The notes beneath the pieces were generated by a model. That model made no database searches, was not told the origin of the DNA, and was given only the letters and a program-made list of their open reading frames with translations. The position numbers and the translations under genes were made by a program. A DNA stretch of 32,000 bases from Synechococcus sp. A15-24 (GTDB lineage: Bacteria; Cyanobacteriota; Cyanobacteriia; PCC-6307; Cyanobiaceae): positions 1,710,001 to 1,742,000 of the forward strand of contig NZ_CP047960.1 of the NCBI RefSeq assembly GCF_014280195.1. Reading direction: 5' to 3'. How positions within the stretch are numbered: position 1 is the first letter of the stretch; each line of letters starts with the position of its first letter. Of this stretch, positions 2,179 to 30,189 are shown piece by piece.

Positions 2179-2296
2179 GGTTCCTAACCCGTTTCTGCAG
2201 TGTCTCAAGCCCTGGGACATGCGTGTGGGTTCCCCATGGAGGGAAGCCCGAACGCGATGCCACCACTAGCGTTTTTCAAAGAATGCTCGAAGAGTG

Positions 2297-2701: not shown

Positions 2702-2704
2702 GCG

Positions 2705-10381: not shown

Positions 10382-10408
10382 AGAAACTTGCCCGATGTAG
10401 AGCGTAAA

Positions 10409-11302
10409 TCAGAGTTTGTTGAACAGCATCAAATCATTGATATCGTCACGAATTTGATTGAGAGCTCCAAGACCAGTAATCAATTGAGATACAGAGGAGC
10501 CGCGAGCACCTGCAAGAGTCATTTTGTGATCAGCCACAAACGTAGCAGTAAACCGCTCTTCAGAAGGCTTAATCATATCTATCAAATCAGATCCACTGGT
10601 TAGGGCTGCCAAGAAACCAGGATCCGAAAAAACAGTCTCTCGATCGAGTGCCGTTGCAAAAGCAATTTCAAAGCAGGCATGGTAGTCCTTGCCAGGCTTT
10701 TCGACATGCTCTACACCTTGAGCGTCAGGGCGGGAAAGATCAATTTCGTCAAATAAATGATAACGCAACTTAGAAACCTCCTTCAAAGAGGAAAGCGAGG
10801 CCATCAATTGATCTGAAATGTAGGTACGGAATTGATCTACAGATGCAGAATCAGCCTTGCGAACCATAACGTGGTAACGAAGCTCTGAGATCGAACCATT
10901 CGGATACGGCTCCGAAAGATTATCAATCAAGGTAACCGTATTACCCAATGATGTCGTGTAACCAATTGCTTTGCTGAAAATATTATGCTCATCGTCCATT
11001 AATATCGTGGAGGCTTGGAACCAAGTCGCACGATCTTCTACTGAGGAGAATGTCAGTTCAGCAACCCCCATAAATTGATCTTCATAGAGTGTGTTGACAG
11101 GGCAACCATCGACGACAGGAAACAGCCCACCCTCATATGGTGAGAGGTGGAATTGCCAATATTCCATTTGGCCAGGCAACCGAGCGCAGACCGGCCCATG
11201 AACATCACGCCAATAGTCGTCAAACTGAGCAAGGGTAATGCCGTCACGCTTCCAAAGCGGAACATAAAAAACGACCTCGGGCGAACGCGGCGTGGATGGC
11301 AT
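10409..11302 (-). CDS. tandem EthD-domain protein (dimeric alpha/beta-barrel superfamily)
   Basis: There are two EthD-like halves. The first is VVFYVPLWKRDGITLAQFDDYWRDVHGPVCARLPG....GVAELTFSSVEDRATWF. The second is LRYHVMVRKADSASVDQFRTYISDQL......ACFEIAFATALDRETVF. The ORF-track start at 11308 is TTG; I use the ATG at 11302. Confidence 0.55.
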   Translation of the reverse strand: MPSTPRSPEVVFYVPLWKRDGITLAQFDDYWRDVHGPVCARLPGQMEYWQFHLSPYEGGLFPVVDGCPVNTLYEDQFMGVAELTFSSVEDRATWFQASTILMDDEHNIFSKAIGYTTSLGNTVTLIDNLSEPYPNGSISELRYHVMVRKADSASVDQFRTYISDQLMASLSSLKEVSKLRYHLFDEIDLSRPDAQGVEHVEKPGKDYHACFEIAFATALDRETVFSDPGFLAALTSGSDLIDMIKPSEERFTATFVADHKMTLAGARGSSVSQLITGLGALNQIRDDINDLMLFNKL

Positions 11303-11512
11303 GTGCAAGAAGAATCTTCTGAAAGTTTAGCTGCAACACACTAGGCAGGCAAAAAGTGGTGCAGGATCAATACAGAAGAATGATGCATCTACGTAGTCAA
11401 CAGATAACGACACACCAAGGCCGTCTAGGGTGTAAAGAGAAGCTGACAAAAGGATTAAGCAGTTGCCACGCAAAACGGTCAGAACTAGGATTGGTGGAGC
11501 ATCTAACTTAAA

Positions 11513-12247
11513 ATGCAGTTTTACAGTGTTGATAAGGAAGAATCACCATCTGCCCTAGGCCATTACCTGCAAGGCATTCAACATTTTGGAATAACCACTC
11601 CCGACCTCAAAAAGTCTCTGACCTTTTATATCGATATCCTTGGAGGACGATTGGCGGTCGGAGGTGATGGATTTTATGGTGTTGAATTACATAATCTACT
11701 ATTTCAACAGGATGAATTAAAGGCAATACAAAATGACGTTAGCGCTGAGGATTGCGGAATCCCGGACCTAAGAGATGGGAACAAAGACGCTCTGGATGTG
11801 CGCTTTATACAGTTCGGCAACACAACCCTAGAGCTTTTGCATTTCAGGCAAGCCCAACAAGATCAGTGGGCGCCAAACGTATACAAAGCAATATCTACAA
11901 GTGTAGGATTTGCGAATGTATCTCACCTATCGTTTTTCCTGAGATCCGATGTTGATGTAAATGAATTTGCGTTGAAGCTCGAGGCGGAATCGCACAAAAG
12001 AGGGCTGACCGAGGTCAAAGTTCATCGCAAACAACAAGAGACGTCGGGTGAAGCCGGCTCTAAGGAATTTGCGATTGACAAATTTCCTGATTCATTCGAT
12101 GGCTGGTGCTTGATCTATGTGAAAGGACCGAATGGCGAGCAGCTTGAGTTTAACCAAGTGAGATCGATCTGCAAAGACAACTTCAAGGAAGCCCAGCAAC
12201 AGTACAATCGCCTCAACGGTACAGATTACTCGTGGCCGCAGGGATAA
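11513..12247 (+). CDS. VOC-family protein (glyoxalase/bleomycin-resistance/extradiol-dioxygenase fold)
   Basis: The sequence IQHFGITTPDLKKSLTFYIDILGGRL is the canonical VOC first module. A second module lies around FANVSHLSFFLRSDVDVNEFALKLE. Confidence 0.6.
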   Translation: MQFYSVDKEESPSALGHYLQGIQHFGITTPDLKKSLTFYIDILGGRLAVGGDGFYGVELHNLLFQQDELKAIQNDVSAEDCGIPDLRDGNKDALDVRFIQFGNTTLELLHFRQAQQDQWAPNVYKAISTSVGFANVSHLSFFLRSDVDVNEFALKLEAESHKRGLTEVKVHRKQQETSGEAGSKEFAIDKFPDSFDGWCLIYVKGPNGEQLEFNQVRSICKDNFKEAQQQYNRLNGTDYSWPQG

Positions 12248-15909: not shown

Positions 15910-18900
15910 GTGACTCTTAATGATGCATACATCATTGGTTCGGAAAATCACTCGTCATGGAGTCAAAATTTCGATCCGAAAGCATACCTTAAAGTCCTCC
16001 CACAACATAACCAAAAGCTTGCCTACACAAGCCCATGGCTTGAATGGCAACAAGGGAACAAAAACTACAGAGACGGCATCTATTCAGAAGAAGGGCCCAA
16101 CGGAAGTTATTACTCGAGCTGGGGACCAGAGTCAGACGTCCTGGATGTCGAACTTACGCTGTCAGAGCTCAACGAAATCACGATTCCAGGATTAGGAGTA
16201 CTAACGCGTAGTACTGAAGACAATGGCACAGCCTATGACGATGGCTTTCAAGCGTACAACGGACTCATCCCTGGCCCACTGCTTGTAGTAGATCCGGGAG
16301 ACACGCTCAAAATTAGGCTTGTCAATGACTTAGAGAACAGAAGCGGGCTTGAACTTGCCGCTGACACCAATTTCCATACACACGGATTGCATGTAAGTCC
16401 ACTAGGTGCAGGCGATAACGTTCTATTTTCGCTATCACCTGGGGATGCATGGGAAACTGAAATAAAAATCCCAGATAACCACTTTGTTGGACCTCAATGG
16501 TATCACCCCCACCTTCACGGAGCAACAAATCTCCAAGTATCAAACGGGCTCGCAGGAACACTTCTAGTATTAGCTTCAGAAGAAGAAGCCGATGATATAG
16601 ACAAATTTAGTCCAGTGGATAATTCTTTCTACTGGATGGCAATTCAAACACAATCTCTGCTTCAGCAAGAGCGACCAGCATCTTCGAATGACCCACTCAA
16701 TCAAGATCCAAACGGTCTCTCATACAGGATAGGAACACCACCTGTATTTACTGAAGTTGACGGCACAAAAGTATTTACAAAATCGGACGCAGCGTACATA
16801 GGTTACAACTTTAAGCCCGATTATTACGACCCTACTCAGCCAACAGGCGACCCATCAGGTACCCCATTTGCGTATGGAGCAGGGATAGCTGGAACACCAA
16901 CAGAAAATATAATTCATACAGTTAATGGCCAGTACAATCCAACCATTGACGTAGAAACTGGTCAATGGAATGTTTTTGGATTCCTAAATCAGTCCGTTAA
17001 CTCTCACTTTGTCATCCAACTTGTACGTGAATACAAAGGTGAGTTATCGCTTGAGGAATTTCAAGTGATCGCCGTTGATGGAGATGCAGCAGGAGTAGTT
17101 TCGCAGGCACTGCAATTTGTTACCGAAACACCAGTGATGGCTCCCGGCAATCGAATGACAGTTCAGCAAGCTTTTACAAAACCAGGTAAATATTATTTTC
17201 TTGCAAACGGAACAGAAGAAATCCTTGGAGAGTTGGCCCCAGAAGTGGCAAATATAGCCCCTATGAATTTATATGAAACTCCGAGTATTGAGTTCAATCC
17301 GGATTTTGTGCCGAGCGATGTTCAAGGTGCTCTCTACGCAGGAGCAGAAACATGGAACGAACTTAGAAGAGAGGTCTTTGAGGGACCTCTTGATCTATCT
17401 GGAATGCATTTCCCTCCAACATGGGATCTACGAGGATACGATCTGACAAATGTAGATCTAGATGACTCCTTCATGGGTTTGGTGAATTTGACTGATGTTG
17501 ACCTAAGAGGATCAAGTCTGAATAATGTCAACCTAATTGGTGCCAACGTAACCAATACAAATCTTTTCGATGTTGATCTAAGCGGCGCTCTTTTACCGGG
17601 TGGCATTGATCAAGCTTCTAACGCTAAATACGATCAAGACACATATCCATACCAAGGAATTCATGATGGCCACCTAATCTGGGGCGCACAAGTTCTCGCA
17701 ACAGTAGAGGTAACTGGTGAATCAATATCAAGCAGACCTGCCCCACCAGAACCAATTCAATACTTGCTTGAAGAATCAGAAAAGATTGACACTTGGGTAA
17801 GTGATACAAAAAATGCAATTGCCAATGATAATATAAAAAGGAGAAACTTTATTTGGGATGCAAACTATAGTCGGCTCCAAGAAGAAAATAGAATTATAGA
17901 TGACAATGATCCGTCAACATTTGAAGACATGTATTGGATTAACGGAAGGTGGTTTGGGCATTCGCCAAGTGAGCAACCTGTAGTTGCGATGCCAATGCTG
18001 GGGACCACTGAAGAATGGACTCTTCAGAATAGTTCCATAGGCTTTGGTGCAGGTGCTGTAGGAGAATGGCACCCATTTCACATTCACCAAAACGATTTTG
18101 TTGTCACAGAAATCAATGGCATAAATGTAGAGGATATACCATCATATCCAGCCAACCAACTTGTCGACACAGTTACACTAGCTAGTTCTTATGTTCAAGA
18201 TTCAGCTACTGCAAATAATCCCTATGGCAGCCCAGCATATTTCAATCCGATCACTGATAGCATAAATGGGATACCTCAGAATTTCGAAACCAAATTATTC
18301 ATGAAGTTCGAAGATTACACTGGAGCATATGTTAATCATTGTCATATTCTCTTTCACGAAGATGCAGGCATGATGCAGGCAGTGAAAGTAATCCTCAACA
18401 CTGACTCGAACTATATTGGCGCTGAAAAGCAAACCGGTAAGCCCACACTCAGGCTAGGATCATCAATGGTGGATACTTTTTCAATCGATAACAGCGATAA
18501 CTTTAGCAAAAAACTAAACATCGCAATTGGCGATATCAATTTTGGCAAGTTCTTTAGCATGGACAAACTCAGTGACACCTTTAAAGGTGGTACCAAGGGG
18601 GAATCTGATAATATCGCAGACATCGCAATTACCGGAGAAAAGATTGCGAGAAATGAAAGTGGTTTTCAAATAAATGTATATGATGGAGACTCAGTAAGTC
18701 AATCGGCGACAGGCTCATATAAATTAAAGAGAGATCAACAAAAGCAGTCCGAAATAGAATTGTCAGGTGAAGATCATCTTCTAGCAACAATCAATTCCTT
18801 TAGCAAAAAGAAGTCCAAATCAATATCCTCGTCACTGGCAGTCGGAGATATAAATGGTGACGGACACGGGGACATAATTATTGGGATTGGTGGGCCCAAA

Positions 18901-19704
18901 ACAGACCCTATGATTGAAATCTATAGCGGTAATAATTTCGAGAGAATGGCAAAGATAAAGCCATTTTGGCGTTATGGCATGAAAACAAGCATTAATATCG
19001 CCTCTGGAGACATTAATTCAGATAATTTTGTTGATATTCTTGTTGGCCAAGGTTCTGGAGGCATGGGGATGGTGGAAGTATTTGATGGGCGCGCCTTAAC
19101 ATCAGTCATTAAGAATAAACAGGGTAACAACATTGATGATGAGGAAACAGCAGGGATCAAACCATTCAAAGGGAAAAAAGTTGCGCAAGCGACAGAAGCA
19201 TATGACACTATGTTTCATCCATTCCCTGGATATACAGGTGAAGTAGATGTAGCAAGTGGTTATATTTTGCCACGCCCAAGCTACGATCTCGATGATGAAA
19301 TTTCAGAACAAAAAAAAGATCAAATCGTGCAGACAAGCTATGCGAATTTTACAACACTCGCAGTTGATAAGAGATCAAGCGAAGAAGACCCCTCAATCAA
19401 AAGCTTCTTCTATACAGGTGGAAGTTCGCATGCGAATCACAGCGATACCGAACAATCACGTGCTGATCACAGTGAAGGATTATTGCCATCTCTCGCAGTA
19501 TCTCTAAATATTGACAAAAAAATCACTAGCATTAACAATGCATTCTTCGATTTGTCGGACGCGCTTGATGATCGAGGAATGAATGGTCTAGTCATCACCA
19601 CTAGAAAGGGTGAAGAGTACCTTCACTATATAGAGCCAACAACAGTCCAAGAAGGTGAGTTTTCTATCATGGATACTGTAGCAATTAACATCACACCCAG
19701 CTAG
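15910..19704 (+). CDS. multicopper oxidase / FG-GAP fusion, paralog 2, with an inserted pentapeptide-repeat module
   Basis: It has the same four Cu motifs and the same FG-GAP region as paralog 1. Until the insertion it is collinear with paralog 1 at a constant offset of 3560 nt. The GTG start at 15910 aligns exactly with the ATG of paralog 1 (MTLNDAYIIGSENHSS versus MNLANAYIIGSENHSS). Confidence 0.85.
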   Translation: MTLNDAYIIGSENHSSWSQNFDPKAYLKVLPQHNQKLAYTSPWLEWQQGNKNYRDGIYSEEGPNGSYYSSWGPESDVLDVELTLSELNEITIPGLGVLTRSTEDNGTAYDDGFQAYNGLIPGPLLVVDPGDTLKIRLVNDLENRSGLELAADTNFHTHGLHVSPLGAGDNVLFSLSPGDAWETEIKIPDNHFVGPQWYHPHLHGATNLQVSNGLAGTLLVLASEEEADDIDKFSPVDNSFYWMAIQTQSLLQQERPASSNDPLNQDPNGLSYRIGTPPVFTEVDGTKVFTKSDAAYIGYNFKPDYYDPTQPTGDPSGTPFAYGAGIAGTPTENIIHTVNGQYNPTIDVETGQWNVFGFLNQSVNSHFVIQLVREYKGELSLEEFQVIAVDGDAAGVVSQALQFVTETPVMAPGNRMTVQQAFTKPGKYYFLANGTEEILGELAPEVANIAPMNLYETPSIEFNPDFVPSDVQGALYAGAETWNELRREVFEGPLDLSGMHFPPTWDLRGYDLTNVDLDDSFMGLVNLTDVDLRGSSLNNVNLIGANVTNTNLFDVDLSGALLPGGIDQASNAKYDQDTYPYQGIHDGHLIWGAQVLATVEVTGESISSRPAPPEPIQYLLEESEKIDTWVSDTKNAIANDNIKRRNFIWDANYSRLQEENRIIDDNDPSTFEDMYWINGRWFGHSPSEQPVVAMPMLGTTEEWTLQNSSIGFGAGAVGEWHPFHIHQNDFVVTEINGINVEDIPSYPANQLVDTVTLASSYVQDSATANNPYGSPAYFNPITDSINGIPQNFETKLFMKFEDYTGAYVNHCHILFHEDAGMMQAVKVILNTDSNYIGAEKQTGKPTLRLGSSMVDTFSIDNSDNFSKKLNIAIGDINFGKFFSMDKLSDTFKGGTKGESDNIADIAITGEKIARNESGFQINVYDGDSVSQSATGSYKLKRDQQKQSEIELSGEDHLLATINSFSKKKSKSISSSLAVGDINGDGHGDIIIGIGGPKTDPMIEIYSGNNFERMAKIKPFWRYGMKTSINIASGDINSDNFVDILVGQGSGGMGMVEVFDGRALTSVIKNKQGNNIDDEETAGIKPFKGKKVAQATEAYDTMFHPFPGYTGEVDVASGYILPRPSYDLDDEISEQKKDQIVQTSYANFTTLAVDKRSSEEDPSIKSFFYTGGSSHANHSDTEQSRADHSEGLLPSLAVSLNIDKKITSINNAFFDLSDALDDRGMNGLVITTRKGEEYLHYIEPTTVQEGEFSIMDTVAINITPS
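17254..17652 (+). other. 133-codon variable linker in MCO paralog 2 (13 codons in paralog 1 at 13694-13732) containing a pentapeptide-repeat module
   Basis: The flanks are conserved in both paralogs (LAPEVAN before, QGIHDGHLIWGAQVLATVEV after). The insert reads DLRGYDLTNVDLDDSFMGLVNLTDVDLRGSSLNNVNLIGANVTNTNLFDVDLSGALL, which has A(D/N)LXX-type repeats. Confidence 0.7.
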
Positions 19705-19817: not shown

Positions 19818-20381
19818 TTATACGGTTACGAGCTTCAGAAGCTCTTGTGAAGCAAAGACATCACGAACGAAGGTCAGCTGCTCACTCTTGTAGTAGCAGC
19901 CGCCACGATGACCACGACGAACCCAACAAACACTACCTTTCGCGATTTGCTCATGGGTTGCATCATCCAGACAGATCCACTCAAAATGGGTGAACTCACC
20001 CCAGAACTGCACGATGGGCCAACACATCGTTACGCCAGGCTGAGCAATAATTGCCCACCAGTGCTTTTCCCGCTGCTGCTGCTCAGTGATGCCATGATAT
20101 GGACCATCCTGACAGTGATAGACGAGATCCGGACGATACTCCTTGGTTAACAAATCGCCCCGACCCTGACGGAGAGCTTCACAATGTGTCGGCCAAAATT
20201 CACGATTTTCAGCTTCAATCTGTTCAAGGGTGTAATCCGGACCGATGGCAGGTAATGAGACCTCCTGCATATTGCCAATTTCGTCTGAACGCTTGATCAG
20301 ACTGGCCTTCATTTCATCGCTGACAAGACCGACTCGTGAATAGTCGGCAGTCAGGCCTTCGTAGTAGTTGCGGCGCGTCAT
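19818..20381 (-). CDS. hypothetical protein, possibly with an NTF2/SnoaL-like fold
   Basis: The 187-aa ORF has an ATG start. Its C-terminal half (LLTKEYRPDLVYHCQDGPYHGI......WGEFTHFEWICLDD....IAKGSVCWVRRG) loosely follows the SnoaL-like pattern. The resemblance is weak. Confidence 0.35.
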   Translation of the reverse strand: MTRRNYYEGLTADYSRVGLVSDEMKASLIKRSDEIGNMQEVSLPAIGPDYTLEQIEAENREFWPTHCEALRQGRGDLLTKEYRPDLVYHCQDGPYHGITEQQQREKHWWAIIAQPGVTMCWPIVQFWGEFTHFEWICLDDATHEQIAKGSVCWVRRGHRGGCYYKSEQLTFVRDVFASQELLKLVTV

Positions 20382-20658
20382 GGAATTGTTTAATCAATTT
20401 TAATCAGCTCCAACCAATGGCTGAAGCTAACACTTGAAATATAGCCTTCGCAAAGAGGGCGCGCAGCAAGAAAATCAGACCTGTGGCACGTGACACATAA
20501 ACGATCGAATCGAGAACGAGCAAGAAAAATATTGGTGGCGCTTAGACAAGATCCATGCTTCATACAATATATACGAGGAATCCAAGACATTAATTACCCA
20601 AGGTTCTAATGGTCTCGTAAAAATATGCTCTGTTCCAAGAGGGAAAGCTATAGTGAAA

Positions 20659-21324
20659 ATGGGGGAGTCAGGTGTTCCTGCCGACTCCGCAAAACAATTT
20701 AAGTTTACAATCATGTTACTCAGCTCACATGGTCCAGCGAAAGGAAGAGTAGGGGTCTTCATCGAAGATCACTTCGATATGACGGAATATCGAATCTTCA
20801 ATCGCCGTTTTCCTGCTGCAGGATATGAATTAGAGTACATCTCAAATCTTTGGGGCAATCCAACACTTCAGTTTGGCTCTAACCCAGATAACGGATGGGT
20901 TGAGGAGCACATAACAGTCGCTAAAGATGTTGCAGATATCAATCCTACTGACTACAAGGGTTTTCTCCTCATTGGAGCGTACGCCACGGATCGCCTGAGG
21001 TATTCAGTTAAGCCTGAAAAAGGAAAACCGAATGATGCACCCGCCGTTGAACTTTTAAGGAAGATCAATAAAGCGGATGGTGTCAAGATTGGTACAATTT
21101 GCCACTCACTTTGGTTGCTTTGCGCTGACCGTACTCTACTTGAAGGCAAAAAAGTAACGTGCGCCCACAATATCCTATGCGATGTTGAAAACGCAGGCGC
21201 AGAAGTTCAATACGGGGATGACGGAACTGCTGGCAGCTGTGTTGACGGCGACTTAATATCAGCCAAGCACCCTGCATTTACAGATGAATTGATTGATTTG
21301 TTCCTCAAAGAAATTGAAACTTGA
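20659..21324 (+). CDS. DJ-1/PfpI-family protein (class I glutamine amidotransferase-like fold)
   Basis: The nucleophile-elbow motif is KIGTICHSLWLL. It is followed by LLEGKKVTCAHNILCDVENAGAEV. The first strand is RVGVFIEDHFD. The start is uncertain: GTG at 20653, ATG at 20659 or ATG at 20713. Confidence 0.75.
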   Translation: MGESGVPADSAKQFKFTIMLLSSHGPAKGRVGVFIEDHFDMTEYRIFNRRFPAAGYELEYISNLWGNPTLQFGSNPDNGWVEEHITVAKDVADINPTDYKGFLLIGAYATDRLRYSVKPEKGKPNDAPAVELLRKINKADGVKIGTICHSLWLLCADRTLLEGKKVTCAHNILCDVENAGAEVQYGDDGTAGSCVDGDLISAKHPAFTDELIDLFLKEIET

Positions 21325-21381
21325 AACATTTGGGCAGGGGCAAGCTTTAAACTAATTGCCCCTCGCAAAGTCAGGAGTCAA

Positions 21382-21735
21382 TCACGATCCGTATTTCTCT
21401 TTTAGCTCGTTAAGGCGTCCAAATCCACCGGCAGCTTTATTAAAGCCGCAGTAGACGCAGGCAAACAGAAGAATTTCCTCGATTTCCTCAAATGTAATCC
21501 CTTGCTTTAGGGCCATAGTCACGTGGGCTTCAAAAGGAATACCTGGGCCACTGTACGATTGATTTGCGACGTCTAGCAGAATCGTAAACATCGCTTTGGT
21601 CTTTTGATCAATCAAGGAATGACCCCAGGCCTCTCCAGCAACACGTACACAAAAGTCCCCAAATTTGGGATTGACTCCGTTCAGCGCTTCTTGGAGTTGA
21701 GCATCACCAAGGACGGCATTTTCCTTGAGATCCAT
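21382..21735 (-). CDS. carboxymuconolactone decarboxylase (CMD/AhpD-like) family protein
   Basis: The sequence AGEAWGHSLIDQKTKAMFTILLDVAN....FEAHVTMALKQGITFEEIEEILLFACVYCGFNKAAGGF follows the CMD family pattern. I use the ATG at 21735; the ORF-track start at 21756 is GTG. Confidence 0.75.
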   Translation of the reverse strand: MDLKENAVLGDAQLQEALNGVNPKFGDFCVRVAGEAWGHSLIDQKTKAMFTILLDVANQSYSGPGIPFEAHVTMALKQGITFEEIEEILLFACVYCGFNKAAGGFGRLNELKEKYGS

Positions 21736-22139
21736 AATAATGACAGGCGACAACACATTTTAGCACTCGTGTCGAGTAGTTGCACTGATTCGTCAACGGC
21801 TGAAGATCTGATTTAATTCTGCGTACTTGTGAGCTGAGATTAATGAAAGGAGCCTCGGCGAAAGGGGAGCCGCCTGATAAGCCAAACTAACTACAGATTA
21901 CAGCTAGAAAGCAAAAAATTAAAACCCAATTAGAGCTGGCAATCTAAAGATACCGTCGGCAATTCTAATTTCAGACTGAAACGGTAATCCATATTACCGA
22001 TTGGCATCTCCATGGACGTGCATTAACACATCGTGAAGCGAAGAGACCACTGCCTCGGCAATGGCTAAGGTTTAGATGGTTAGCAATCAACATAGCCTAA
22101 TCCGGCGACCTTCACAAGCTCACAAACTAAAGGTATTTC

Positions 22140-22571
22140 ATGACCGACGCAACCTATCAATGGGAATGGCCGCACACCCTGAAGTGGCCAAAGTTCAACA
22201 ATATGGGGGAAAATGTAGACACTCTCAAAAAACTTTTTCTCGCCGGAGAAGCGCTAAATGTCAACAACTTTATCAAGTTTTTTGCGGACGAATGCTACTA
22301 CCAATTTGGTAACTTTCCTCCTGCGAGGACGCCTCAAGAGATCAAAGCTGCATCACAAGGGTTCATTGAGTCATGCGAAGGACTACACCATCGCATCCTA
22401 AACATCTCCATTCCAAGCGAAGATACATTGCTTGTTGAAATGGTTGTGACCTACATCTCGCATAGTGGCAAGATTGTCACGCTTCCATGTTTTGATATCG
22501 TCAAGTACGAAGGAGCATTGATCAAGGAGCTAAAAATATTTATGGACATCAATCCTCTTTTCCAGGATTAA
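22140..22571 (+). CDS. NTF2-like (SnoaL / limonene-epoxide-hydrolase-like) small protein, array member 1
   Basis: It shares FIKFFADECYYQFGNFPPARTPQEI and VTLPCFDIVKYEGALIKELKIFMDINPLF with the next three ORFs. An alternative start is the ATG at 22203 (MGENVDTLKKLF). Confidence 0.6.
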   Translation: MTDATYQWEWPHTLKWPKFNNMGENVDTLKKLFLAGEALNVNNFIKFFADECYYQFGNFPPARTPQEIKAASQGFIESCEGLHHRILNISIPSEDTLLVEMVVTYISHSGKIVTLPCFDIVKYEGALIKELKIFMDINPLFQD

Positions 22572-22614
22572 TTTTCAATTTCTCGAAACACACTCCCATC
22601 CAATTTCACTATCA

Positions 22615-22983
22615 ATGATGTCAAACTCTGACACAGTACGCAGTCTTTTGAAGATGTTTGAATCCTTCAATGTGGAGGGATTTTTAGAACTTCTCACTGA
22701 AGATGCCGAGTATCGATTCGGTAATTATCCTGCAGCCGTTGGGCAAGAGAATATTGCCGCAACAATCAAGGCTAGTCACCTTGATGCAATTTCGGGGATT
22801 TCTTTTGAAATCAAATCCCTATACGAACTTGAAGATACTGTAGTAACGGAATTGATTTGTAACTATTCCCTCAAAAAAGGTGGAAATTTACCGCTTCCAT
22901 GCCTTGATATATTTAAGTTTCAAGGCGGGAAGGTTTCTGCTATGTTAGTTTTTATGGATGCAACTCCGCTGTTCACAGCATAA
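22615..22983 (+). CDS. NTF2-like small protein, array member 2
   Basis: It carries FLELLTEDAEYRFGNYPAAVGQENI and LPLPCLDIFKFQGGKVSAMLVFMDATPLF. Confidence 0.6.
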   Translation: MMSNSDTVRSLLKMFESFNVEGFLELLTEDAEYRFGNYPAAVGQENIAATIKASHLDAISGISFEIKSLYELEDTVVTELICNYSLKKGGNLPLPCLDIFKFQGGKVSAMLVFMDATPLFTA

Positions 22984-23025
22984 AGAATTTAATTCTAAAT
23001 CAATCCTATTATCACCCAATTAGCT

Positions 23026-23391
23026 ATGAATTCCGCACTTGTAACTTCTGTCAAAGAGGCTTATGCAGCCGTTGAATCGAACGACATCTCAGCGTATGTT
23101 CAATTCTTTACTGATGATGCTATCTACAAAGTAGCAAATTTCGACCCCGTCGTTGGGCCTGATGGCATACGTGCCTTGGCAGAACCACTTGTCGACATGT
23201 TTGAGTCCGTGACTCATGACATCACGACGATTTGGGAGGTCGAAAACACAGTAATTTGTGAAATGAATGTAACGTACAACCGCAAAGATGGCAAATCAGT
23301 TACGGTTCCATGCGTCGATGTCATCCACTTCAGCGACGGGAAAGTCAATGAATTGAAGGCATATATCGATACTTCACCAGCCTTTTCCTGA
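23026..23391 (+). CDS. NTF2-like small protein, array member 3
   Basis: It carries YVQFFTDDAIYKVANFDPVVGPDGI and VTVPCVDVIHFSDGKVNELKAYIDTSPAF. Confidence 0.6.
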   Translation: MNSALVTSVKEAYAAVESNDISAYVQFFTDDAIYKVANFDPVVGPDGIRALAEPLVDMFESVTHDITTIWEVENTVICEMNVTYNRKDGKSVTVPCVDVIHFSDGKVNELKAYIDTSPAFS

Positions 23392-23410
23392 ACAACCTGC
23401 ATTGAACAAA

Positions 23411-23770
23411 ATGGCATCTCTAACACTACAGCATGCAACAACGTTTCTTGGCGGTGCGGCGAATTTAGATGAATATCTAAATTTTTTCGCAAATGATTGT
23501 ACTTATCAAGTGGGAAACAATCCCGTGATCGTTGGGAAAGAAGCTCTCGGGCAAAGCTACGGTCGATTTAAAGGTATGGTTGAACGAGTTGAACATGAAA
23601 TCCTATCGTCGTACGAAAGCGAGAATATTGTGGTGATAGAGCTTAATGCCACATACCACAAGAAAGACGGTAAAACCGTAACCATTACATGCTTGGACTT
23701 GTTCACTATAATTGACCAAAAAATTAAGTCTCTACAGGTATTTGCAGACCTCAGTCCTCTTTTTAAATAA
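23411..23770 (+). CDS. NTF2-like small protein, array member 4
   Basis: It carries YLNFFANDCTYQVGNNPVIVGKEAL and VTITCLDLFTIIDQKIKSLQVFADLSPLF. I use the ATG at 23411; the ORF-track start at 23402 is TTG. Confidence 0.6.
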   Translation: MASLTLQHATTFLGGAANLDEYLNFFANDCTYQVGNNPVIVGKEALGQSYGRFKGMVERVEHEILSSYESENIVVIELNATYHKKDGKTVTITCLDLFTIIDQKIKSLQVFADLSPLFK

Positions 23771-23809: not shown

Positions 23810-24829
23810 ATGATTTCTCAACTTCGGAAGCTCTCCAATCAAATTTCTGCATTTGTTTTATCACTTGTTCTTTTCTGCTTCTCATTCCCTCCAAATGTTC
23901 ACGCAGCTACATCGACAAGGGTGGTTCAGGGAGATAAAATGAATATGGGTAAGGGCGAAGTTTGGACGTGGACAGAAGTCGAAAAGGGTACCGGCACACC
24001 GAGACGGTTGGGGATCACCCTGACCAAATCCGCTCTGGACGGACTTCCCGCTGATGATGAGAAGCCCGAGAAAGGGACTCTGAAGCTAAAACTCATCGAC
24101 GGAAGTCCGTGGCACAATTTTGAATATGAGATGCTTTTTCCTAAAGAGGCTGATCGTACCGCCTACAACCACATGGGGTTGAATTGGAACCCTGAAGGGC
24201 ATGGACCCCTAGAGGATGTCTTCTTTGAACCTCATTTAGACGTGCACTTCTATATGGCGACCACGGATTATCGTCATTCAATTACAAACGACAGCATGGT
24301 CGATCCCGACACTGAAGATCTGCTGGTACAAAACATTGAACCACCTAGAGATTTTCTTCCTGAAGGTTATTATCGTGCCCCAAATACCTCTGAGCCGAGG
24401 ATGGGGACCCACTATGCAGACATGAGCTCAGATCAACTCAAGCCACACAATTTTTCTAATATATTCCTGTTCGGGGGGCACAACGGCAACATCGTATTTT
24501 GGGAGCCTATGCTGACCAGAAAATATCTGCTCTCTAAGCCCGACTTCTCCGCCAAAATTCCCCAGCCTAAGGCTTATCCAGTGAGCGGTTATTATCCTCT
24601 TTCGTATAGCGTCAAATACGATACGAAGCGCGATCTCATCAATGTATCTCTTGATGAGCTCACGTTGAGAGCTGCATCTTATCCAGGTAATGTATATGGA
24701 GTTGACTCTTGCTTAGACTCCAAGATGGTCGACATAATTTTTACTCACAAAGAAGCCAAGCCAAAGGATTTGCAAATTCCAGCAAAATGTCAGCCTCTTG
24801 TCCCGATGATTAAACGAGCACTGAGCTGA
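23810..24829 (+). CDS. Sec-exported protein of unassigned family (shares a domain of about 290 aa with the N-terminus of the 26791..29250 product)
   Basis: The signal peptide is ISAFVLSLVLFCFSFPPNVHA/AT. The conserved motifs NPEGHGP, HLDVHFY, EPMLTRKYLLSK and IPQPKAYPVSGYYPLSY each have a counterpart in the 819-aa protein. Confidence 0.6.
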   Translation: MISQLRKLSNQISAFVLSLVLFCFSFPPNVHAATSTRVVQGDKMNMGKGEVWTWTEVEKGTGTPRRLGITLTKSALDGLPADDEKPEKGTLKLKLIDGSPWHNFEYEMLFPKEADRTAYNHMGLNWNPEGHGPLEDVFFEPHLDVHFYMATTDYRHSITNDSMVDPDTEDLLVQNIEPPRDFLPEGYYRAPNTSEPRMGTHYADMSSDQLKPHNFSNIFLFGGHNGNIVFWEPMLTRKYLLSKPDFSAKIPQPKAYPVSGYYPLSYSVKYDTKRDLINVSLDELTLRAASYPGNVYGVDSCLDSKMVDIIFTHKEAKPKDLQIPAKCQPLVPMIKRALS

Positions 24830-24847
24830 GGATTGGCACTTTTTAAT

Positions 24848-24891
24848 ATTGTGCAGCCCATTGCTTTACATAAAGCAATGGGCTGCACAAT
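24848..24891. repeat. perfect 20-bp inverted repeat (hairpin with 4-nt loop) without a downstream U-tract
   Basis: The arm attgtgcagcccattgcttt (24848-24867) is followed by the loop acat and then aaagcaatgggctgcacaat (24872-24891). It starts 19 nt after the stop at 24829. A T5 run lies upstream of the stem, not downstream. Confidence 0.7.
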
Positions 24892-25049
24892 GCCATATAC
24901 ATAATTCGCTATAAATGGGGGTTACAGGGTTTCTAATTTCACTCGTCGATTAAAAACCTTAAGGAAAACCGTCTTCGATTCGTGACATATTCATACATGT
25001 CGTGTCAAGTCAGTGTCTATCTCTACAATAAATAAGATTGAAACCGCAA

Positions 25050-26720
25050 ATGCGCAACCTTTTCATAAGCTCGACTCTTCTAGGTACCTGCTCAGCATTG
25101 CTCATCTCCAACGCCAATGCCGATCAAGTGCATCCTGCAGACTATGCATACCAAGATCTAGATGCCTATATTGAGCCCACGGCTGATCAACTTGACCAAG
25201 TCACTTCTGTAGATCAGTTTTCTGATGTTCAACCTACAGATTGGGCATACCAAGCAATAATAAATCTTGCCGAAATATATGGGTGCGTCGCAGGCTATCC
25301 AGATCAATCACTACGGGGGGATCAAGCGATCACACGTTACGAAGCAGCTGCACTCTTGAACAACTGTTTAGATTCTATATCTGAGGTTACGGATGAAATC
25401 AGGAAGCTAATTTACCTTTTTGAAACAGAGCTTGCATTAATTCGGGGCAGAGTTGATGGATTAGAGGCCAGAGTAGGAGAATTGAAGGCAATGCAGTTTT
25501 CTCCGGTCTCGAAACTCAAGGGAGAAGCTAGTTTCATGATGGGTTCCATCAAACATGGCGGAGACGTTAGCGACAATATTGCTGGCCAATTGTATTCAAC
25601 TAGGCAGGATGCTTTCCATATGATACAAAGTTTGAGGTTGGGTTTTAAGGCAAGTTTCACCGGAAAGGATTATTTCCTTGCCCAGCTTCGTACAGGTAAT
25701 GCTTCCAATTCTGCATTTAATACCTTCAACCCTGCCACTCCTTTCTACAAGTCCACGGTGCCTCTTGCAGCTCTGGACCGCGCTTTCACTCCCGTCGGAG
25801 GGGACAATGTCTTTAATCTGGAGCGGATGTACTATAAATTTCCTCTAGGCAATGACTTCACAATAACTCTGGCTCCGAAGATTATGAATATGGGGTTGTG
25901 GGCGAGCTATCCGTCTGCCTATGGCGTGCGTGGAGATTACATCTTAGACTATTTCAGTAGTTTCGGTACTCCTGGGGTTTATAACAAAGCAGTAGGTGCT
26001 GGCGGAGCTGTTACTTGGAGAAGCAAAGCAGGAAATCCATTCATGACTTCTCATTGGCTTGCCACTGTCAATTATCTGGCCATCTCGGGTGAAGTATCTG
26101 GGGAGTCGGGAGGCTTCATGAGAGACCAATCTCGCGGGAACATCGCAGCTCAATTTGGTTATCAATCACCTCTATACGGGTTGGTTCTTGGTTACCGGTA
26201 TGGTCAGAACGGTACAGATTTCCTACAAGGCACAAAAACAACCACAAGGCACCAATCATGGTTGGAGTACGGCACAACATCTGATTCTCACAGCTTTGCC
26301 GTCAACGCTTGGTGGAGGCCACAGGAAACAGGCTGGATACCATCACTCAGCGTGGGATGGGGGGTCAACACGCTGAACAATGATGACGTGAGTGATCCTA
26401 CATACAATGAATACGACCGAGGCGTCCGAAAAGTGAGCGAATCACAAAGCTGGATGGTTGGCCTTCAATGGGATGACGTTACAGGCATTAGAGATTCCCT
26501 GTCCTTCGCCGTTGGTCAACCAACATTTGCGACAGCCTTGGCTGACGGCTCCACTCCTGATGATGGAAATTACATCATGGAACTTTGGTATCGCTATCCC
26601 TTTTCCAACCACATTTCAATCATGCCAGGCCTGTTCTACCTAAGCAGACCATATGGACAACTAACGCAGGGACGAATGGATACCTTTGGCGGAGTGGTTC
26701 AAGTGAATTTCACATTCTGA
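25050..26720 (+). CDS. cyanobacterial outer-membrane porin (N-terminal SLH domain, coiled-coil linker and OprB-type beta-barrel)
   Basis: The signal peptide is MRNLFISSTLLGTCSALLISNANA/DQ. The SLH motif is FSDVQPTDWAYQAIINLAEIYGCVAGYPD..LRGDQAITRYEAAALL. A coiled coil follows (LALIRGRVDGLEARVGELKA). The body alternates beta-strand-like segments and ends in the OMP-type VQVNFTF. I use the ATG at 25050; the ORF-track start at 25038 is TTG. Confidence 0.85.
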   Translation: MRNLFISSTLLGTCSALLISNANADQVHPADYAYQDLDAYIEPTADQLDQVTSVDQFSDVQPTDWAYQAIINLAEIYGCVAGYPDQSLRGDQAITRYEAAALLNNCLDSISEVTDEIRKLIYLFETELALIRGRVDGLEARVGELKAMQFSPVSKLKGEASFMMGSIKHGGDVSDNIAGQLYSTRQDAFHMIQSLRLGFKASFTGKDYFLAQLRTGNASNSAFNTFNPATPFYKSTVPLAALDRAFTPVGGDNVFNLERMYYKFPLGNDFTITLAPKIMNMGLWASYPSAYGVRGDYILDYFSSFGTPGVYNKAVGAGGAVTWRSKAGNPFMTSHWLATVNYLAISGEVSGESGGFMRDQSRGNIAAQFGYQSPLYGLVLGYRYGQNGTDFLQGTKTTTRHQSWLEYGTTSDSHSFAVNAWWRPQETGWIPSLSVGWGVNTLNNDDVSDPTYNEYDRGVRKVSESQSWMVGLQWDDVTGIRDSLSFAVGQPTFATALADGSTPDDGNYIMELWYRYPFSNHISIMPGLFYLSRPYGQLTQGRMDTFGGVVQVNFTF

Positions 26721-26790
26721 AGCTTAAATCCCAACGACTTTAATCTGATTCACAACCCACCTTCCAACCATTTCTTCAATTCCTTCTCCG

Positions 26791-29250
26791 ATGTCTGATT
26801 TCACCCCTGTTCATGTTCCCCTTGATGGAGACGACTTTATCGTTTATGGTCCGACAGTAAAGCTCAACAAGCGAGCTGGATTCGAAGAATCAAAAGGTAG
26901 AATTCGATCATTTATGGTTTTCGATGGAGATCTTGACACTCCATTGGACATCGGAATGGAGTTCAACAAGGCAGCTCTGAAAAATTTGCCTGGATCCCTT
27001 GAGAATCGTCAAGACCGGGGTGATTATCTTGCGGGCGAATTTGAGATCGAGCTTGCGTATCCAGAGAACAGTACTGTTTTCAATCTACTGACGTGGACGT
27101 GGGTTGCTGGTCCTAATGGAACTCAAACTGACGGCCATGGACCCGACGGAGTTTACGACGTCGATCATTTCGATTTTCACTTTTACTTAAATTCTCAAGA
27201 AGTTAGAGATACCATTAATGTTTTCTATTCGCCAGATGAATACGCGAAGGCGCAGATTGCTCCCCCTGTTGATTTCTGGCCAGAGGACTACAAGCGTCCG
27301 GTCGACGCCTTCATGAATGGAATCGGAGTAGCTCCAGGCGATGGAAGTCACTGGAATAATGTACTTTATCCCGAATTTGAGCAGGTTGACAACGACGAGA
27401 TCTACCAGTTCTTTGAGTCCAGTGGCGTTCCCTTTGGTCCTGATCAAAGGACTGTTCAGTATGGCGCCTATGACGGGCACATGACGCTTCTCGAGCCGAT
27501 GACAACCCGAGACTATCTGCTCTCCAAAAAAAGTTCGTCAGACTCGATTCAGCAACCCGATAAATATTTTAAATCTGGATATTTTCCTAAAAGCTACGAA
27601 ATTGATTTTGTTAAAGGAGATGATTTTCCATATAAGGTCTATTTGAGTGATCTTGAATATCACGAGGCCTCGACACCACCGGAGAGGCGCAATGAACCTC
27701 CAACTGAAATCCTAATCGATAATAAAAAAATATATAATAATGTTGAATACCTTAATTTGGTCGGTGTTCTTGAGACCGTTGATGAGCATGGTCCATTTCG
27801 GAAAAAAGACGATCACGTTTATGCGCTTCCATTTGGAATTCCTCCGGTCCTGGTGGACGATGCTGAGGGCCGATTCATTGTTAACGGCAACCAAATTCTT
27901 ATCAATGATGATCCTGAGCTTGAAGCCGGTGAAACATATACAATCAAAGTTAGAAGCGTTGACTCAGGCGGTTTAAGTGTCGTGGAAGAAATTGAAATAG
28001 AGGTTGATGATCTAGGAGGACCCTCTAGCCCAACTCCTTCGAAGCAGCAAAGGAAGTTACTGGATGGATCTGATACTTGGAACATTTATAGGCTTTCAAA
28101 TCCAGACAAAAAAGTTAAACTTAAGAACACTGATCTACCTGGCATCGTATCTAGCATGGCAGGTCCAACATCGTTTGACCTGAGTAAAGCATTGTTGGAT
28201 GATGCAAATCTAAAAGGCAGCATTCTAGAGAGTGTGAACCTTCGCAAGGCTCAGCTTCGTAATGCCAATTTATACGGTGCGTACGCTTTTGCAGTTAATC
28301 TCTCGAAAACAGATCTGCGTAACGCAGACCTGCGCGGAGCAGACCTGAGTGCAGCAAATCTCAGGGGTGCTGATCTCAGAGGCGCTGATCTCAGAGGTGC
28401 CTTCCTTACAGCTGGCGCAGACTTAACGAATGCCAATCTTGAGGGTGCGAATCTCAACGGTGCCGACCTAATTACAGCCAATCTGACGGGCGCAAATTTC
28501 ACTGATGCGACAACAAAGAATGCATCTTTGAGGTTTACGACTGTGGACGATGCTGTGTTTGATAATGTTGATCTCTCAACCGTCAATGCATTTGGAGTTG
28601 ATTTTGATACAGCTGCCAGTATTGAAGACACGATCCTTCCCGAGGGAAGCACCTACACAGATCTCCAAGGTGCCTTGTTTGCTGGAGCAGACACTTGGAA
28701 TGAACTGCGTCGCGAAGTCTTTGAAGGTCCCCTTGATCTCAGTGGGATGGACTTTCCACCGATTGGTTTTGATCTGCAAGGCTACGATCTGACAAACGTC
28801 ACACTTGACGATTCCTACATGGAATTTGTCGACCTGACAGGAGTTGACCTGAGTGGATCCAGTCTTCGAGGAGCAAATATGTTTGGCGCGACGCTGTCTG
28901 AAGCAAACCTTGAAGATGCTGATCTAACTGGTGCATTTCTACCCGGCTCGATTCACGTTGAAACCAATTACAAAGATGCAATACTTGACAAGACAGTGTT
29001 TTCGGGAGCTGAAGTTAATGGAACTGATTTTACTAACGCAAGCTTTAAAGATGCTGATATTCGATTTGTGAACCAAGCAATTTCCAGAGAGATTGCTATG
29101 GGAGATTTTGAACCAGCCAACTTTACCGGTGCTGATTTAAGTGGATCCAGATTTAGGGCCTCAATTTTCAGAGGATCAACTTTTACTGGGGTTGATTTTT
29201 CTGAGCTTGAAGACGTTACTGCTACGGACTTCTCCGAGATCACGATTTAG
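26791..29250 (+). CDS. multidomain protein: unassigned His-motif domain (paralogous to 23810..24829), cadherin-like domain and pentapeptide-repeat blocks; no signal peptide
   Basis: The N-terminal domain carries TDGHGPDG, HFDFHFY, EPMTTRDYLLSKK and IQQPDKYFKSGYFPKSY. The cadherin-like segment is at about 27690-28005 (RFIVNGNQILINDDPELEAGETYTIKVRSVDSGGLSVVEEIEIEVDD). The A(D/N)LXX repeats include ADLRGADLSAANLRGADLRGADLRGAFL and run to the C-terminus. Confidence 0.7.
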   Translation: MSDFTPVHVPLDGDDFIVYGPTVKLNKRAGFEESKGRIRSFMVFDGDLDTPLDIGMEFNKAALKNLPGSLENRQDRGDYLAGEFEIELAYPENSTVFNLLTWTWVAGPNGTQTDGHGPDGVYDVDHFDFHFYLNSQEVRDTINVFYSPDEYAKAQIAPPVDFWPEDYKRPVDAFMNGIGVAPGDGSHWNNVLYPEFEQVDNDEIYQFFESSGVPFGPDQRTVQYGAYDGHMTLLEPMTTRDYLLSKKSSSDSIQQPDKYFKSGYFPKSYEIDFVKGDDFPYKVYLSDLEYHEASTPPERRNEPPTEILIDNKKIYNNVEYLNLVGVLETVDEHGPFRKKDDHVYALPFGIPPVLVDDAEGRFIVNGNQILINDDPELEAGETYTIKVRSVDSGGLSVVEEIEIEVDDLGGPSSPTPSKQQRKLLDGSDTWNIYRLSNPDKKVKLKNTDLPGIVSSMAGPTSFDLSKALLDDANLKGSILESVNLRKAQLRNANLYGAYAFAVNLSKTDLRNADLRGADLSAANLRGADLRGADLRGAFLTAGADLTNANLEGANLNGADLITANLTGANFTDATTKNASLRFTTVDDAVFDNVDLSTVNAFGVDFDTAASIEDTILPEGSTYTDLQGALFAGADTWNELRREVFEGPLDLSGMDFPPIGFDLQGYDLTNVTLDDSYMEFVDLTGVDLSGSSLRGANMFGATLSEANLEDADLTGAFLPGSIHVETNYKDAILDKTVFSGAEVNGTDFTNASFKDADIRFVNQAISREIAMGDFEPANFTGADLSGSRFRASIFRGSTFTGVDFSELEDVTATDFSEITI
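28180..29230 (+). repeat. coding pentapeptide-repeat region (includes 15-nt tandem units around 28330-28395)
   Basis: Nucleotide units such as ggtgctgatctcaga / ggcgctgatctcaga translate to GADLR GADLR. The repeat periodicity continues, with interruptions, to the end of the gene. Confidence 0.6.
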
Positions 29251-29339: not shown

Positions 29340-30035
29340 CTAACTCAAGCGTGCCATCTCCAAAGGGATCAATTCATCATATTCCAAGTCTCCCTTCACT
29401 TTTAGTAGGATATCTCCTGCATCGATTCCATCGTAAAAATCCGGAGTGTTTGCTGACAAGATCCCTTTGGTTCGCTTCTTATTGATTTTGAATATCAAAT
29501 CAGCATCGGAAATTCGCAAGGCCTTAAATTCTTTTTTTGATCTAGATACACCTAGGCGTATTCCCTTCAACCTAGCTGTTGCCGAGGCGAGAATGATGCT
29601 TTCGCCTTTTTCGAAGCTTAGATCTTTAATCTTATCCAAACGGCGATCACTCAATGTGGCCATATCTAAATCGAGGACAAATACATCTTTTCCGGCTTTT
29701 CCTCTAGCCTCTTGACCTTTTCCAGACAAGGTAATGATATCTGCGTCAGAAGTTCCGATTAGCTTGCTCCCAAGTGTCGGCGATGATATAGCCCCATCGG
29801 TTGGGGGCATTTTTGACTTGGCCAATGCAAATAACTCCATGGCATCATTATCACCATTATTTTGATTGACAACTGGATGATCATGAGCGCTGGAGGAGTT
29901 GTTTAGCCCTGCATTGATCCATCCATTTCCTTGCCCGATTGACGACCATGAACCCGAACTTGGCACCCCTGTTATGTGGAAGAGCGGACCACGGTTTTGG
30001 TCTTGCCAACCACCTTTTTGTTTCAGCGGCCTCAT
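29340..30035 (-). CDS. hypothetical protein with an N/G/S-rich N-terminus and a degenerate RTX (hemolysin-type Ca-binding)-like segment
   Basis: LIGTSDADIITLSGKGQEARGKAGKDVFVLD followed by DKIKDLSFEKGESIIL resembles the tail of RTX-type repeat proteins (G.D.L.G..G.D.F.. then D.I.DF..GD.I.L). It lacks clean GGxGxD nonamers. I use the ATG at 30035; the ORF-track start at 30059 is TTG. Confidence 0.4.
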   Translation of the reverse strand: MRPLKQKGGWQDQNRGPLFHITGVPSSGSWSSIGQGNGWINAGLNNSSSAHDHPVVNQNNGDNDAMELFALAKSKMPPTDGAISSPTLGSKLIGTSDADIITLSGKGQEARGKAGKDVFVLDLDMATLSDRRLDKIKDLSFEKGESIILASATARLKGIRLGVSRSKKEFKALRISDADLIFKINKKRTKGILSANTPDFYDGIDAGDILLKVKGDLEYDELIPLEMARLS

Positions 30036-30189
30036 GCTTTGAAGGTGGATCAGGGGCAATTTATTTTAATACCGAAATCAATCACAGAACGCAATCGAAC
30101 AGAGGTGTGACCGAATAAGAAAGACATTCCCAGCCTGGCTGCGATCGCAAATCAGTAGAGTGCGCTTCAACTCGGCCTTCGAGCATTGA

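Follow-up and report, generated by a model that had tools for sequence, protein, structure and literature searches.

A Sec-exported DUF5602 protein beside an SLH-OprB porin and a DUF5602-like fusion protein in a Synechococcus island: part of a recurring enzyme cluster and probably not a self-contained porin operon

Positions 23810-29250 of a 32,000-nucleotide (nt) stretch of the genome of Synechococcus sp. A15-24 (contig NZ_CP047960.1, 1,710,001 to 1,742,000; below, "the window", with positions counted from its first letter) hold the genes of an exported protein of 339 amino acids (aa), an SLH-OprB porin and an 819-aa protein whose N-terminal part resembles the 339-aa protein. The question raised by this arrangement is whether the three genes form an outer-membrane uptake or surface module of their own, as a preliminary description of the DNA had proposed, or whether they belong to a larger gene set. 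Comparative analysis revealed that the exported protein belongs to the family DUF5602 (Pfam PF18197) and that its gene is the last of a run (VOC, four SnoaL genes, DUF5602) within a previously undescribed enzyme cluster, which SLH-OprB porins have, by sequence comparison, joined repeatedly; the three genes are functional, yet they probably do not form a self-contained porin operon. The three reading frames are real, all on the plus strand, and the 339-aa and 819-aa genes bracket the porin as first described, with the following elements:

23810-24829, plus strand: gene of the 339-aa DUF5602/TTHB210-like protein (PF18197 match, 104 homologues, AlphaFold2 (AF2) model, ratio of nonsynonymous to synonymous substitution rates (dN/dS))
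23810-23905, plus strand: Sec-type signal peptide of the 339-aa protein, residues 1-32, predicted from sequence inspection, AF2 model and homologues
24170-24517, plus strand: conserved core of the 339-aa protein, residues 121-236, with a putative metal centre (conservation, AF2 model)
24849-24890, plus strand: perfect hairpin of about 20 bp without a U-tract, just 3' of the 339-aa gene (-38.4 kcal/mol, z=-8.05)
25038-26720, plus strand: Som-type SLH-OprB porin of the outer membrane, which carries a signal peptide (PF00395, PF04966, NF033921)
26721-26790, plus strand: unstructured, C/U-rich spacer of 70 nt between the porin and the 819-aa gene (minimum free energy -0.6 kcal/mol, z=+1.98)
26791-29250, plus strand: gene of the 819-aa protein (open reading frame, ORF)
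26791-27675, plus strand: N-terminal DUF5602-like domain of the 819-aa protein, residues 1-295 (BLASTP to the 339-aa protein)
27676-28020, plus strand: cadherin-like repeat, residues about 296-410 (alignment to repeats of the Thermoleptolyngbya protein P0112)
28141-28605, plus strand: pentapeptide-repeat block 1, residues about 451-605 (PF00805, PF13599 and NCBIfam stretches)
28732-29205, plus strand: pentapeptide-repeat block 2, residues about 648-805 (NCBIfam stretches; its start is common to an insert in an oxidase)

Regarding family assignment, the 339-aa protein scored 47.2 bits (E=3.5e-12) with PF18197, the gathering threshold of which is 26.6, and a genome-wide scan with the PF18197 profile scored the gene at 37.3 bits, while a permissive Pfam scan detected no second family on its domain. 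Several of the 104 homologues retrieved carry the DUF5602 annotation. The domain, which had been called unassigned in the preliminary description, is by this profile match the TTHB210-like/DUF5602 domain of PF18197, a known but uncharacterised family whose prototype is TTHB210 of Thermus thermophilus (PDB 3VG8). The PF18197 model comprises 50 residues (62-126 here) located upstream of the histidine core, and the histidine-bearing core lies outside the model. The 339-aa protein represents a long form of DUF5602 with a cysteine-containing C-terminal tail, and its AF2 model has a mean predicted local distance difference test (pLDDT) value of 83.6 and a predicted template modelling score (pTM) of 0.80. 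An exhaustive search placed the size of the family at about 1,960 clusters at 50% identity, mostly single-domain proteins of 250-300 aa, and at least 589 PF18197-type loci were found among species-representative genomes of many bacterial phyla and of Methanosarcina; a literature search on the family returned one preprint.

A signal peptide or lipobox is present at the start of most DUF5602 members. In the 339-aa protein, inspection identified the basic residues R6 and K7, a hydrophobic core at residues 12-26 and, at residues 30-33, the sequence VHA followed by A, between which cleavage is predicted; the AF2 model has a helix at residues 2-24 followed by a low-pLDDT linker at 26-32, and homologues carry matching N-termini or lipoboxes. 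By these features the protein is a Sec-exported member of DUF5602, in agreement with the signal peptide first noticed in its sequence.

The paralogy of the 339-aa and 819-aa proteins extends over 277 aa at 28% identity (BLASTP E=6e-20), which is far beyond chance, and the shared blocks GHGP, HxDxHFY, EPMxTRxYLLSK and QPxxYxxSGYxPxSY align as had been noted. The PF18197 hidden Markov model gave no match to the N-terminal domain of the 819-aa protein even at E<=10, so that its assignment to DUF5602 is one of homology, based on the BLASTP similarity and on the retention of all invariant motifs (GHGP, HFDFHFY, GSH and EPM).

The core of the 339-aa protein contains the motifs G130-H131-x-P133, H142-x-D144-x-H146-F-Y, M198-G-x-H201 and E232-P-M234, and the invariant pattern GHxP / HxDxHFY / GxH / EPM is present in both copies of the window. 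Residues G130, H131, P133, H142, D144 and H146 are conserved at 100% in a set of 77 sequences from many phyla, in which H201, E232 and M234 reach 99% and M198 91%; a second set of 55 DUF5602 representatives gave the same residue conservation (99-100%). In the AF2 model the invariant residues fall on beta-strands that adjoin one another, and H142, D144 and H146 share one face of a strand; this arrangement points to a spatial clustering of the invariant His, Asp, Glu and Met residues. The four His, the Asp, the Glu and the Met conserved at 99% may constitute a mono- or binuclear transition-metal centre. The earlier suggestion that the clustered histidines form a metal or ligand site is thus borne out as far as the conservation of H131, H142, H146 and H201 is concerned, while metal binding itself is a prediction from the sequence. 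Catalytic, possibly binuclear, metal sites have been predicted independently for two other TTHB210-like proteins in a preprint of 2026 (10.64898/2026.10.18.759936).

No solved relative was recovered for this domain. PDB sequence searches with single proteins as queries gave no relevant match, a profile of 19 sequences retrieved no PDB chain at E<=1 and a profile of 55 sequences none at E<=10, 3VG8 not being among the chains retrieved. The fold search recommended in the preliminary description, run with Foldseek on the AF2 model of the 339-aa protein, likewise gave no PDB match at E<=0.001, and 3VG8 was absent from the 50 matches listed; the family was instead named by Pfam. The beta-barrel and propeller structures that Foldseek did list, with TM-scores of about 0.16, were dismissed as meaningless.

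Regarding gene context, the 339-aa gene is accompanied in the window by the following members of the enzyme cluster:

22140-23770, plus strand: four genes of SnoaL/NTF2-like proteins, which usually precede the 339-aa gene as its partners (PF12680)
10409-11308, minus strand: EthD gene (Pfam)
11513-12247, plus strand: VOC/glyoxalase-fold gene (Pfam)
19818-21756: genes of a 187-aa protein (minus strand), DJ-1/PfpI (plus strand) and CMD (minus strand) (Pfam and orthologues)
19818-20381, minus strand: the gene of the 187-aa protein within this group

The cluster, consisting of VOC, four SnoaL genes, DUF5602, EthD, the 187-aa protein, DJ-1/PfpI and CMD, was detected in eight cyanobacterial lineages and in one metagenome-assembled genome (MAG) of the Acidobacteriota, and often also contains a 719-aa STAS-tailed protein, GlgX or an amylase, and FG-GAP copper or cupin oxidases. 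Besides the window it is carried by a Synechococcus MAG (L090), metagenomic picocyanobacterial contigs (L093/94 and L095), Calothrix brevissima NIES-22 (L010), a Leptolyngbyaceae MAG (L012), the genomes G183 and G170, and the Acidobacteriota MAG (L011); several of these loci come from metagenomes of uncertain completeness, and the cluster was seen among close relatives of the 339-aa protein (45-70% identity). The four SnoaL genes are matched one to one, and in unchanged order, by orthologues in L090, L093, L095, L010, L012 and G183, orthologues of the EthD and VOC genes adjoin the SnoaL-DUF5602 run in other lineages, and the 187-aa, DJ-1/PfpI and CMD proteins have orthologues of 57-77% identity in the cluster elsewhere, the Acidobacteriota included. 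In G170 the genes are split between two distant loci, one with VOC and four SnoaL genes and the other with EthD-CMD-CMD-187-aa-DJ-1-DUF5602 (G170:C5, 1013552-1016305 and 3955473-3961007), so that the gene sets co-occur there without linkage. No description of this gene combination was found in the literature, and the cluster is previously undescribed.

The cluster-type DUF5602 proteins form one clade (Shimodaira-Hasegawa-like approximate likelihood ratio test, SH-aLRT, 96) in a tree obtained by a quick search with SH-aLRT support only. The Acidobacteriota sequences (L011, from MAG CAWFGB010000008.1, and L013, Bryobacteraceae) are nested within this otherwise cyanobacterial clade, which suggests transfer of the cluster between phyla; the L011 cluster includes SnoaL genes, DUF5602, EthD, the 187-aa protein, DJ-1 and the STAS-tailed protein. 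As side observations, the 187-aa protein is the most conserved member of the cluster, with 66-77% identity in Calothrix, Leptolyngbyaceae, the picocyanobacterial contigs and the Acidobacteriota MAG, and had no match in Pfam or the PDB; no informative solved relatives were found for the 187-aa, STAS-tailed and VOC proteins of the cluster. Partner-switching regulators (STAS, a HATPase_c_2 anti-sigma-type kinase and a GAF-SpoIIE phosphatase) are located at L093/L094 and L095, with a fifth SnoaL gene in some versions, and the copper oxidase of L093 is split into two genes, the second of which carries DUF4114.

Regarding the porin, an OprB porin is present inside five of the eight cyanobacterial cluster versions (the window lineage, L093/94, L095, L012 and G183), and in three of these (the window, L012 and G183) it is the immediate neighbour of the DUF5602 gene; in L012 it is located about 70 nt upstream of the DUF5602 gene. 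These porins belong to two lineages. The picocyanobacterial porins of the window, of L095 and of the congener G009 score 546-579 bits with one another against at most 353 bits with the genome's own paralogs, and those of L012, L094 and G183 score 634-739 bits with one another against at most 328 bits with most other porins of G183 and G170. As about seven porin genes in 2.3 Mb correspond to about 0.06 expected per 20 kb, their occurrence in five of eight versions, which are not fully independent of each other, makes a chance association unlikely.

Secreted modules recur in the same surroundings. In G183 the DUF5602 gene, the porin and the gene of a 538-aa RTX protein lie on one strand, and residues 2-261 of this RTX protein are 50% identical (E=6e-75) to the C-terminal part, from residue 524, of a DUF5602-DUF4114-RTX fusion protein of G084, the gene of which adjoins a homologue of the island's copper oxidase. 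G183 also encodes an 878-aa protein of the architecture cupin-CHRD-cupin-DUF5602 with no obvious signal peptide. The fusion partners of DUF5602 hence comprise RTX, CHRD, cupin, DUF4114, cadherin-like and pentapeptide modules. The genes concerned are:

L128, 4779-6395, minus strand: RTX gene of G183
L131 (G084:C497), 1898-4279, plus strand: DUF5602-DUF4114-RTX fusion gene of G084
L130 (G183:C1), 9353-11989, minus strand: cupin-CHRD-cupin-DUF5602 gene of G183

The porin of the window scored 31.6 bits for SLH (PF00395), 54.7 bits for OprB (PF04966) and 211 bits for NCBIfam NF033921 (cut-off 100), which assigns it to these families. It has the SLH anchor, the OprB barrel and the signal peptide in common with the cyanobacterial SLH-OprB porins of the NF033921 "iron uptake porin" type (Synechocystis Slr1841 and Slr1908), and differs from the other SLH-OprB porins of the genome in being an extra, island-borne paralog: it is most similar to the porin in the L095 cluster (54% identity, 579 bits), while about six other porin paralogs of the genome are 40-46% identical to it. 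According to a paper that summarises work on the porins of Synechocystis and Anabaena, cyanobacterial SLH/OprB porins are reported to pass inorganic ions, and porin loss alters copper tolerance (PMC12292863); for the porin of the window, "iron uptake" is the label of its family. The start codon is probably ATG at 25050 and not TTG at 25038, as the former aligns with the start in G009.

The two spacers around the porin differ in character. The 70-nt gap before the 819-aa gene contains no hairpin, as had been described, and no terminator-like site was found in it, so porin and 819-aa gene probably share a transcript. The gap of 208 nt between the 339-aa gene and the porin holds the hairpin at 24849-24890, which occurs once in the genome and is missing from the orthologous spacer of G009; it is therefore regarded as a strain-specific, insertion-like feature, and a role as a conserved regulatory element was rejected on the same grounds. 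The remaining spacer upstream of the porin (24980-25037) is poorly conserved in G009 except for CGTGACA (about 24981-24987) and the -10-like box TCTCTAnAATAAAT (about 25019-25032), both of which are candidates for a promoter or operator element of the porin gene.

Regarding the 819-aa protein, no signal peptide was detected, in line with the earlier reading of this gene, and an in-frame TGA at 26746-26748 leaves no room for an N-terminal extension. The pentapeptide modules, tandem A(D/N)LXX repeats, are well supported (PF00805, 177.3 bits over seven stretches and thus above the Pfam threshold, together with PF13599 and PF13576), and the C-terminal half thus resembles pentapeptide-repeat proteins such as HetL, Alr5209 and Qnr/MfpA in its long, right-handed beta-helix-type repeats, arranged here in two blocks; it differs from HetL, Qnr and MfpA in scoring far under their equivalog cut-offs and in the fusion to DUF5602 and cadherin-like parts. 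The start of block 2 is 58% identical over 131 aa to an insert in the island's second multicopper oxidase (oxidase 2, gene at 15910-19704). The term cadherin-like, also taken from the preliminary description, is acceptable in a weaker sense: PF00028 gave no Pfam match to residues 293-450 at E<=10, but residues of about 296-410 produced three alignments to Pfam-Cadherin repeats of P0112 (E=4e-15), so that membership would be by transitive similarity alone. A Pfam scan gave no match for RTX repeats (PF00353) in the 819-aa protein. An AF2 model of residues 1-440, built on an alignment of seven sequences, had a pLDDT of 44 and was too poor for a fold search.

The DUF5602-cadherin-like-pentapeptide architecture was found in six protein clusters among 5.8 billion proteins. 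In the tree the N-terminal domain of the 819-aa protein lies in a separate, long-branched clade with other pentapeptide fusions, and represents a different and older DUF5602 subfamily than the 339-aa protein; the two copies of the window were therefore brought together, and a recent local duplication as their origin was rejected. Regarding export of its relatives, P0108 and P0109 have a Sec signal peptide and P0107 has an N-terminal CHRD and a C-terminal RTX part. The relative P0110 is located beside BolA, glutaredoxin and glyoxalase genes with no porin, and no porin fragment was found upstream of other relatives, which lie on short contigs. The 819-aa gene is absent from all cluster versions outside the island lineage of the window, and was added in that lineage only.

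The island is visible as a block of low GC content (0.42-0.47) that extends from about 4.4 to 30.1 kb of the window within DNA of about 0.60 GC, with genes for tRNA-Tyr and tRNA-Thr just past its right edge. The genome contains three DUF5602 copies, two in the window and a lone one elsewhere; members of the family were detected in 2 of the 36 congeners searched, namely G009, where the entire island is present with its gene order unchanged, and G023, which has the same lone copy, and in 12 of 400 other genomes of the class. Compared with G009, dN/dS is 0.015 for the 339-aa gene, 0.048 for the porin and 0.015-0.05 throughout the three genes, each of the three parts of the 819-aa gene included, with dS saturated, and all of them are under strong purifying selection. 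Two side observations concern other genes. The lone third copy (G000:C1:1023901-1024866, minus strand; L007:9874-10884) encodes 336 aa with 65% identity to the 339-aa protein; with its low GC content (about 0.50 against 0.61), this gene stands by itself as an insertion into core genes (glgC, gnd, pgl and ilvD), and neither a porin nor a SnoaL gene lies in its vicinity. At the island edge, an ORF of 239 aa (29340-30059, minus strand) is 66% identical in G009 and has no Pfam match; an RTX-like nature of its product was unsupported (E=0.087 to the G183 RTX protein).

Considering these data together, we give an even chance to the reading in which the 339-aa protein is a periplasmic metalloprotein and the envelope part of the cluster, the porin a recruited outer-membrane channel, and the 819-aa protein a lineage-specific, scaffolded version of the same site. 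The 339-aa protein would be the sole soluble periplasmic component of the set and would bind or chemically convert a small solute or metal ion entering via the porin, the cytoplasmic VOC, SnoaL, EthD, DJ-1 and CMD proteins would perform the remaining redox or ring-type steps, and the 819-aa protein would be a scaffold form of the same site, located in the envelope or secreted, that gets there without a Sec signal. A more specific form of the proposal, in which DUF5602 would be a binuclear periplasmic or extracellular metalloenzyme of a new fold, is rather unlikely, though worth stating: it would carry out the step located at the envelope in a so far undescribed pathway (VOC, four distinct SnoaL-like proteins, EthD, DJ-1, CMD and the giant FG-GAP copper oxidases) that oxidatively processes an exogenous phenolic or aromatic compound, or a redox metal, entering via a dedicated OprB porin, and the 819-aa protein would be a surface-displayed catalytic version exported without a classical signal.

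Several observations weigh against the role of the 339-aa protein as the cluster's periplasmic metalloprotein. Across 80 loci from many phyla no recurrent neighbour of DUF5602 was detected by BLAST clustering and a Pfam scan of 124 flanking ORFs, and this genome itself has a lone copy. The porin is absent from three of the eight cluster versions, and where present it varies in position and strand; the strong hairpin and the conserved -10-like box between the 339-aa gene and the porin mean that the two may be transcribed apart. No inner-membrane transporter is found among the cluster genes. The metal site is deduced solely from conservation and strand positions, and 3VG8, the sole solved member of the family, was reported without metal (10.64898/2026.10.18.759936). 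Finally, the reading is drawn from sequences and models.

The self-contained module of the preliminary description, in which the 339-aa binder, the porin and the 819-aa surface protein would act independently of the upstream genes, retains some attraction: the same-strand triad is kept in G009, the gap between the porin and the 819-aa gene is short and lacks structure, a comparable order (DUF5602-porin-RTX) occurs in G183, the L012 porin is close to DUF5602, and DUF5602 and RTX are linked by fusion. The triad in G009 belongs to the same island and so does not count as separate evidence. The 339-aa gene usually follows the SnoaL array and not a porin, no other cluster version has the 819-aa gene, and the relatives of the 819-aa protein lie without a porin; the two DUF5602 copies come from different old subfamilies, and there is no inner-membrane permease. 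Of the original proposal, the exported, envelope-type family and the recurrence of DUF5602 with a porin hold, whereas the usual partner is an array of four SnoaL genes among genes of cytoplasmic enzymes. Likewise, the layout of exported domain, channel and repeat protein has a counterpart in G183, where the third gene differs, and gene order is conserved elsewhere for the DUF5602-porin pair but for the full triad only within this island lineage. We therefore consider an independent module unlikely.

Similarly doubtful is a role in copper or iron handling, in which the porin would admit copper or iron and DUF5602 would serve as a periplasmic metallochaperone or redox partner of the island's giant multicopper oxidases, by analogy with the P19/FetP-type periplasmic copper/iron proteins, which work with ferroxidase or permease systems. 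The likeness would be one of mechanism and not of family membership: a beta-rich protein of the periplasm with His/Met and carboxylate ligands, whose gene neighbours copper oxidases and a porin permeable to ions. The four invariant His and the Met, Asp and Glu are typical periplasmic copper/iron ligands, multicopper or cupin FG-GAP oxidases are present in the cluster of the window, L093 and L095 and beside the G084 fusion, cupin and DUF5602 are fused in the G183 protein, and a pentapeptide module is common to the 819-aa protein and oxidase 2. The porin matches the "iron uptake porin" model, and OprB porin mutants of Anabaena are copper-resistant (PMC12292863). On the other hand, no oxidase was seen within range in L090, L010, L012 or L011, and lone DUF5602 members across phyla have no metal-homeostasis neighbours. 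The 339-aa protein has no detectable sequence or fold similarity to P19/FetP, representatives of which were not retrieved by Foldseek, and no Ftr1/EfeU-type permease is found in the cluster.

Compared with the periplasmic metalloprotein favoured here, a chance juxtaposition, in which a cassette of porin and 819-aa gene landed beside a SnoaL-DUF5602 operon of a mosaic island, is quite improbable. The low-GC mosaic nature of the island, the hairpin and separate promoter-like box between the 339-aa gene and the porin, the different subfamilies of the two copies and the approximately six other porin paralogs of the genome would be in keeping with it; the porin frequency among cluster versions greatly exceeds the expected value, two porin lineages occur in different positions, and the DUF5602-RTX fusion link also speaks against chance.

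TTHB210 is under sigmaE/anti-sigmaE control in Thermus. An envelope arm of an oxidative, carbonyl or electrophile stress regulon, with an exported protein that protects or repairs the envelope and has no uptake role, would suit this control, the DJ-1/PfpI, CMD/AhpD-like and glyoxalase-fold partners and the partner-switching regulators of L093 and L095, but it leaves no role for the porin or the invariant metal-type site, and the regulator genes are absent from the cluster version of the window, which makes it a very weak candidate. A reading of the locus as a defence system was rejected, as PADLOC gave no hits.

Thus, DUF5602 itself was already known, and the new content consists of the conserved cluster, the recurrent porin and the fusions to secreted modules. 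For a family of about 2,000 clusters in many bacterial phyla and some archaea, with no function assigned and no informative solved structure, the cluster provides handles on function in the form of defined partner genes, a candidate metal site for which six or seven residues can be named, and genomes that carry the cluster, for instance that of Calothrix brevissima NIES-22. Regarding marine Synechococcus, the horizontally acquired island may change the handling of metals or dissolved organic compounds at the cell envelope.

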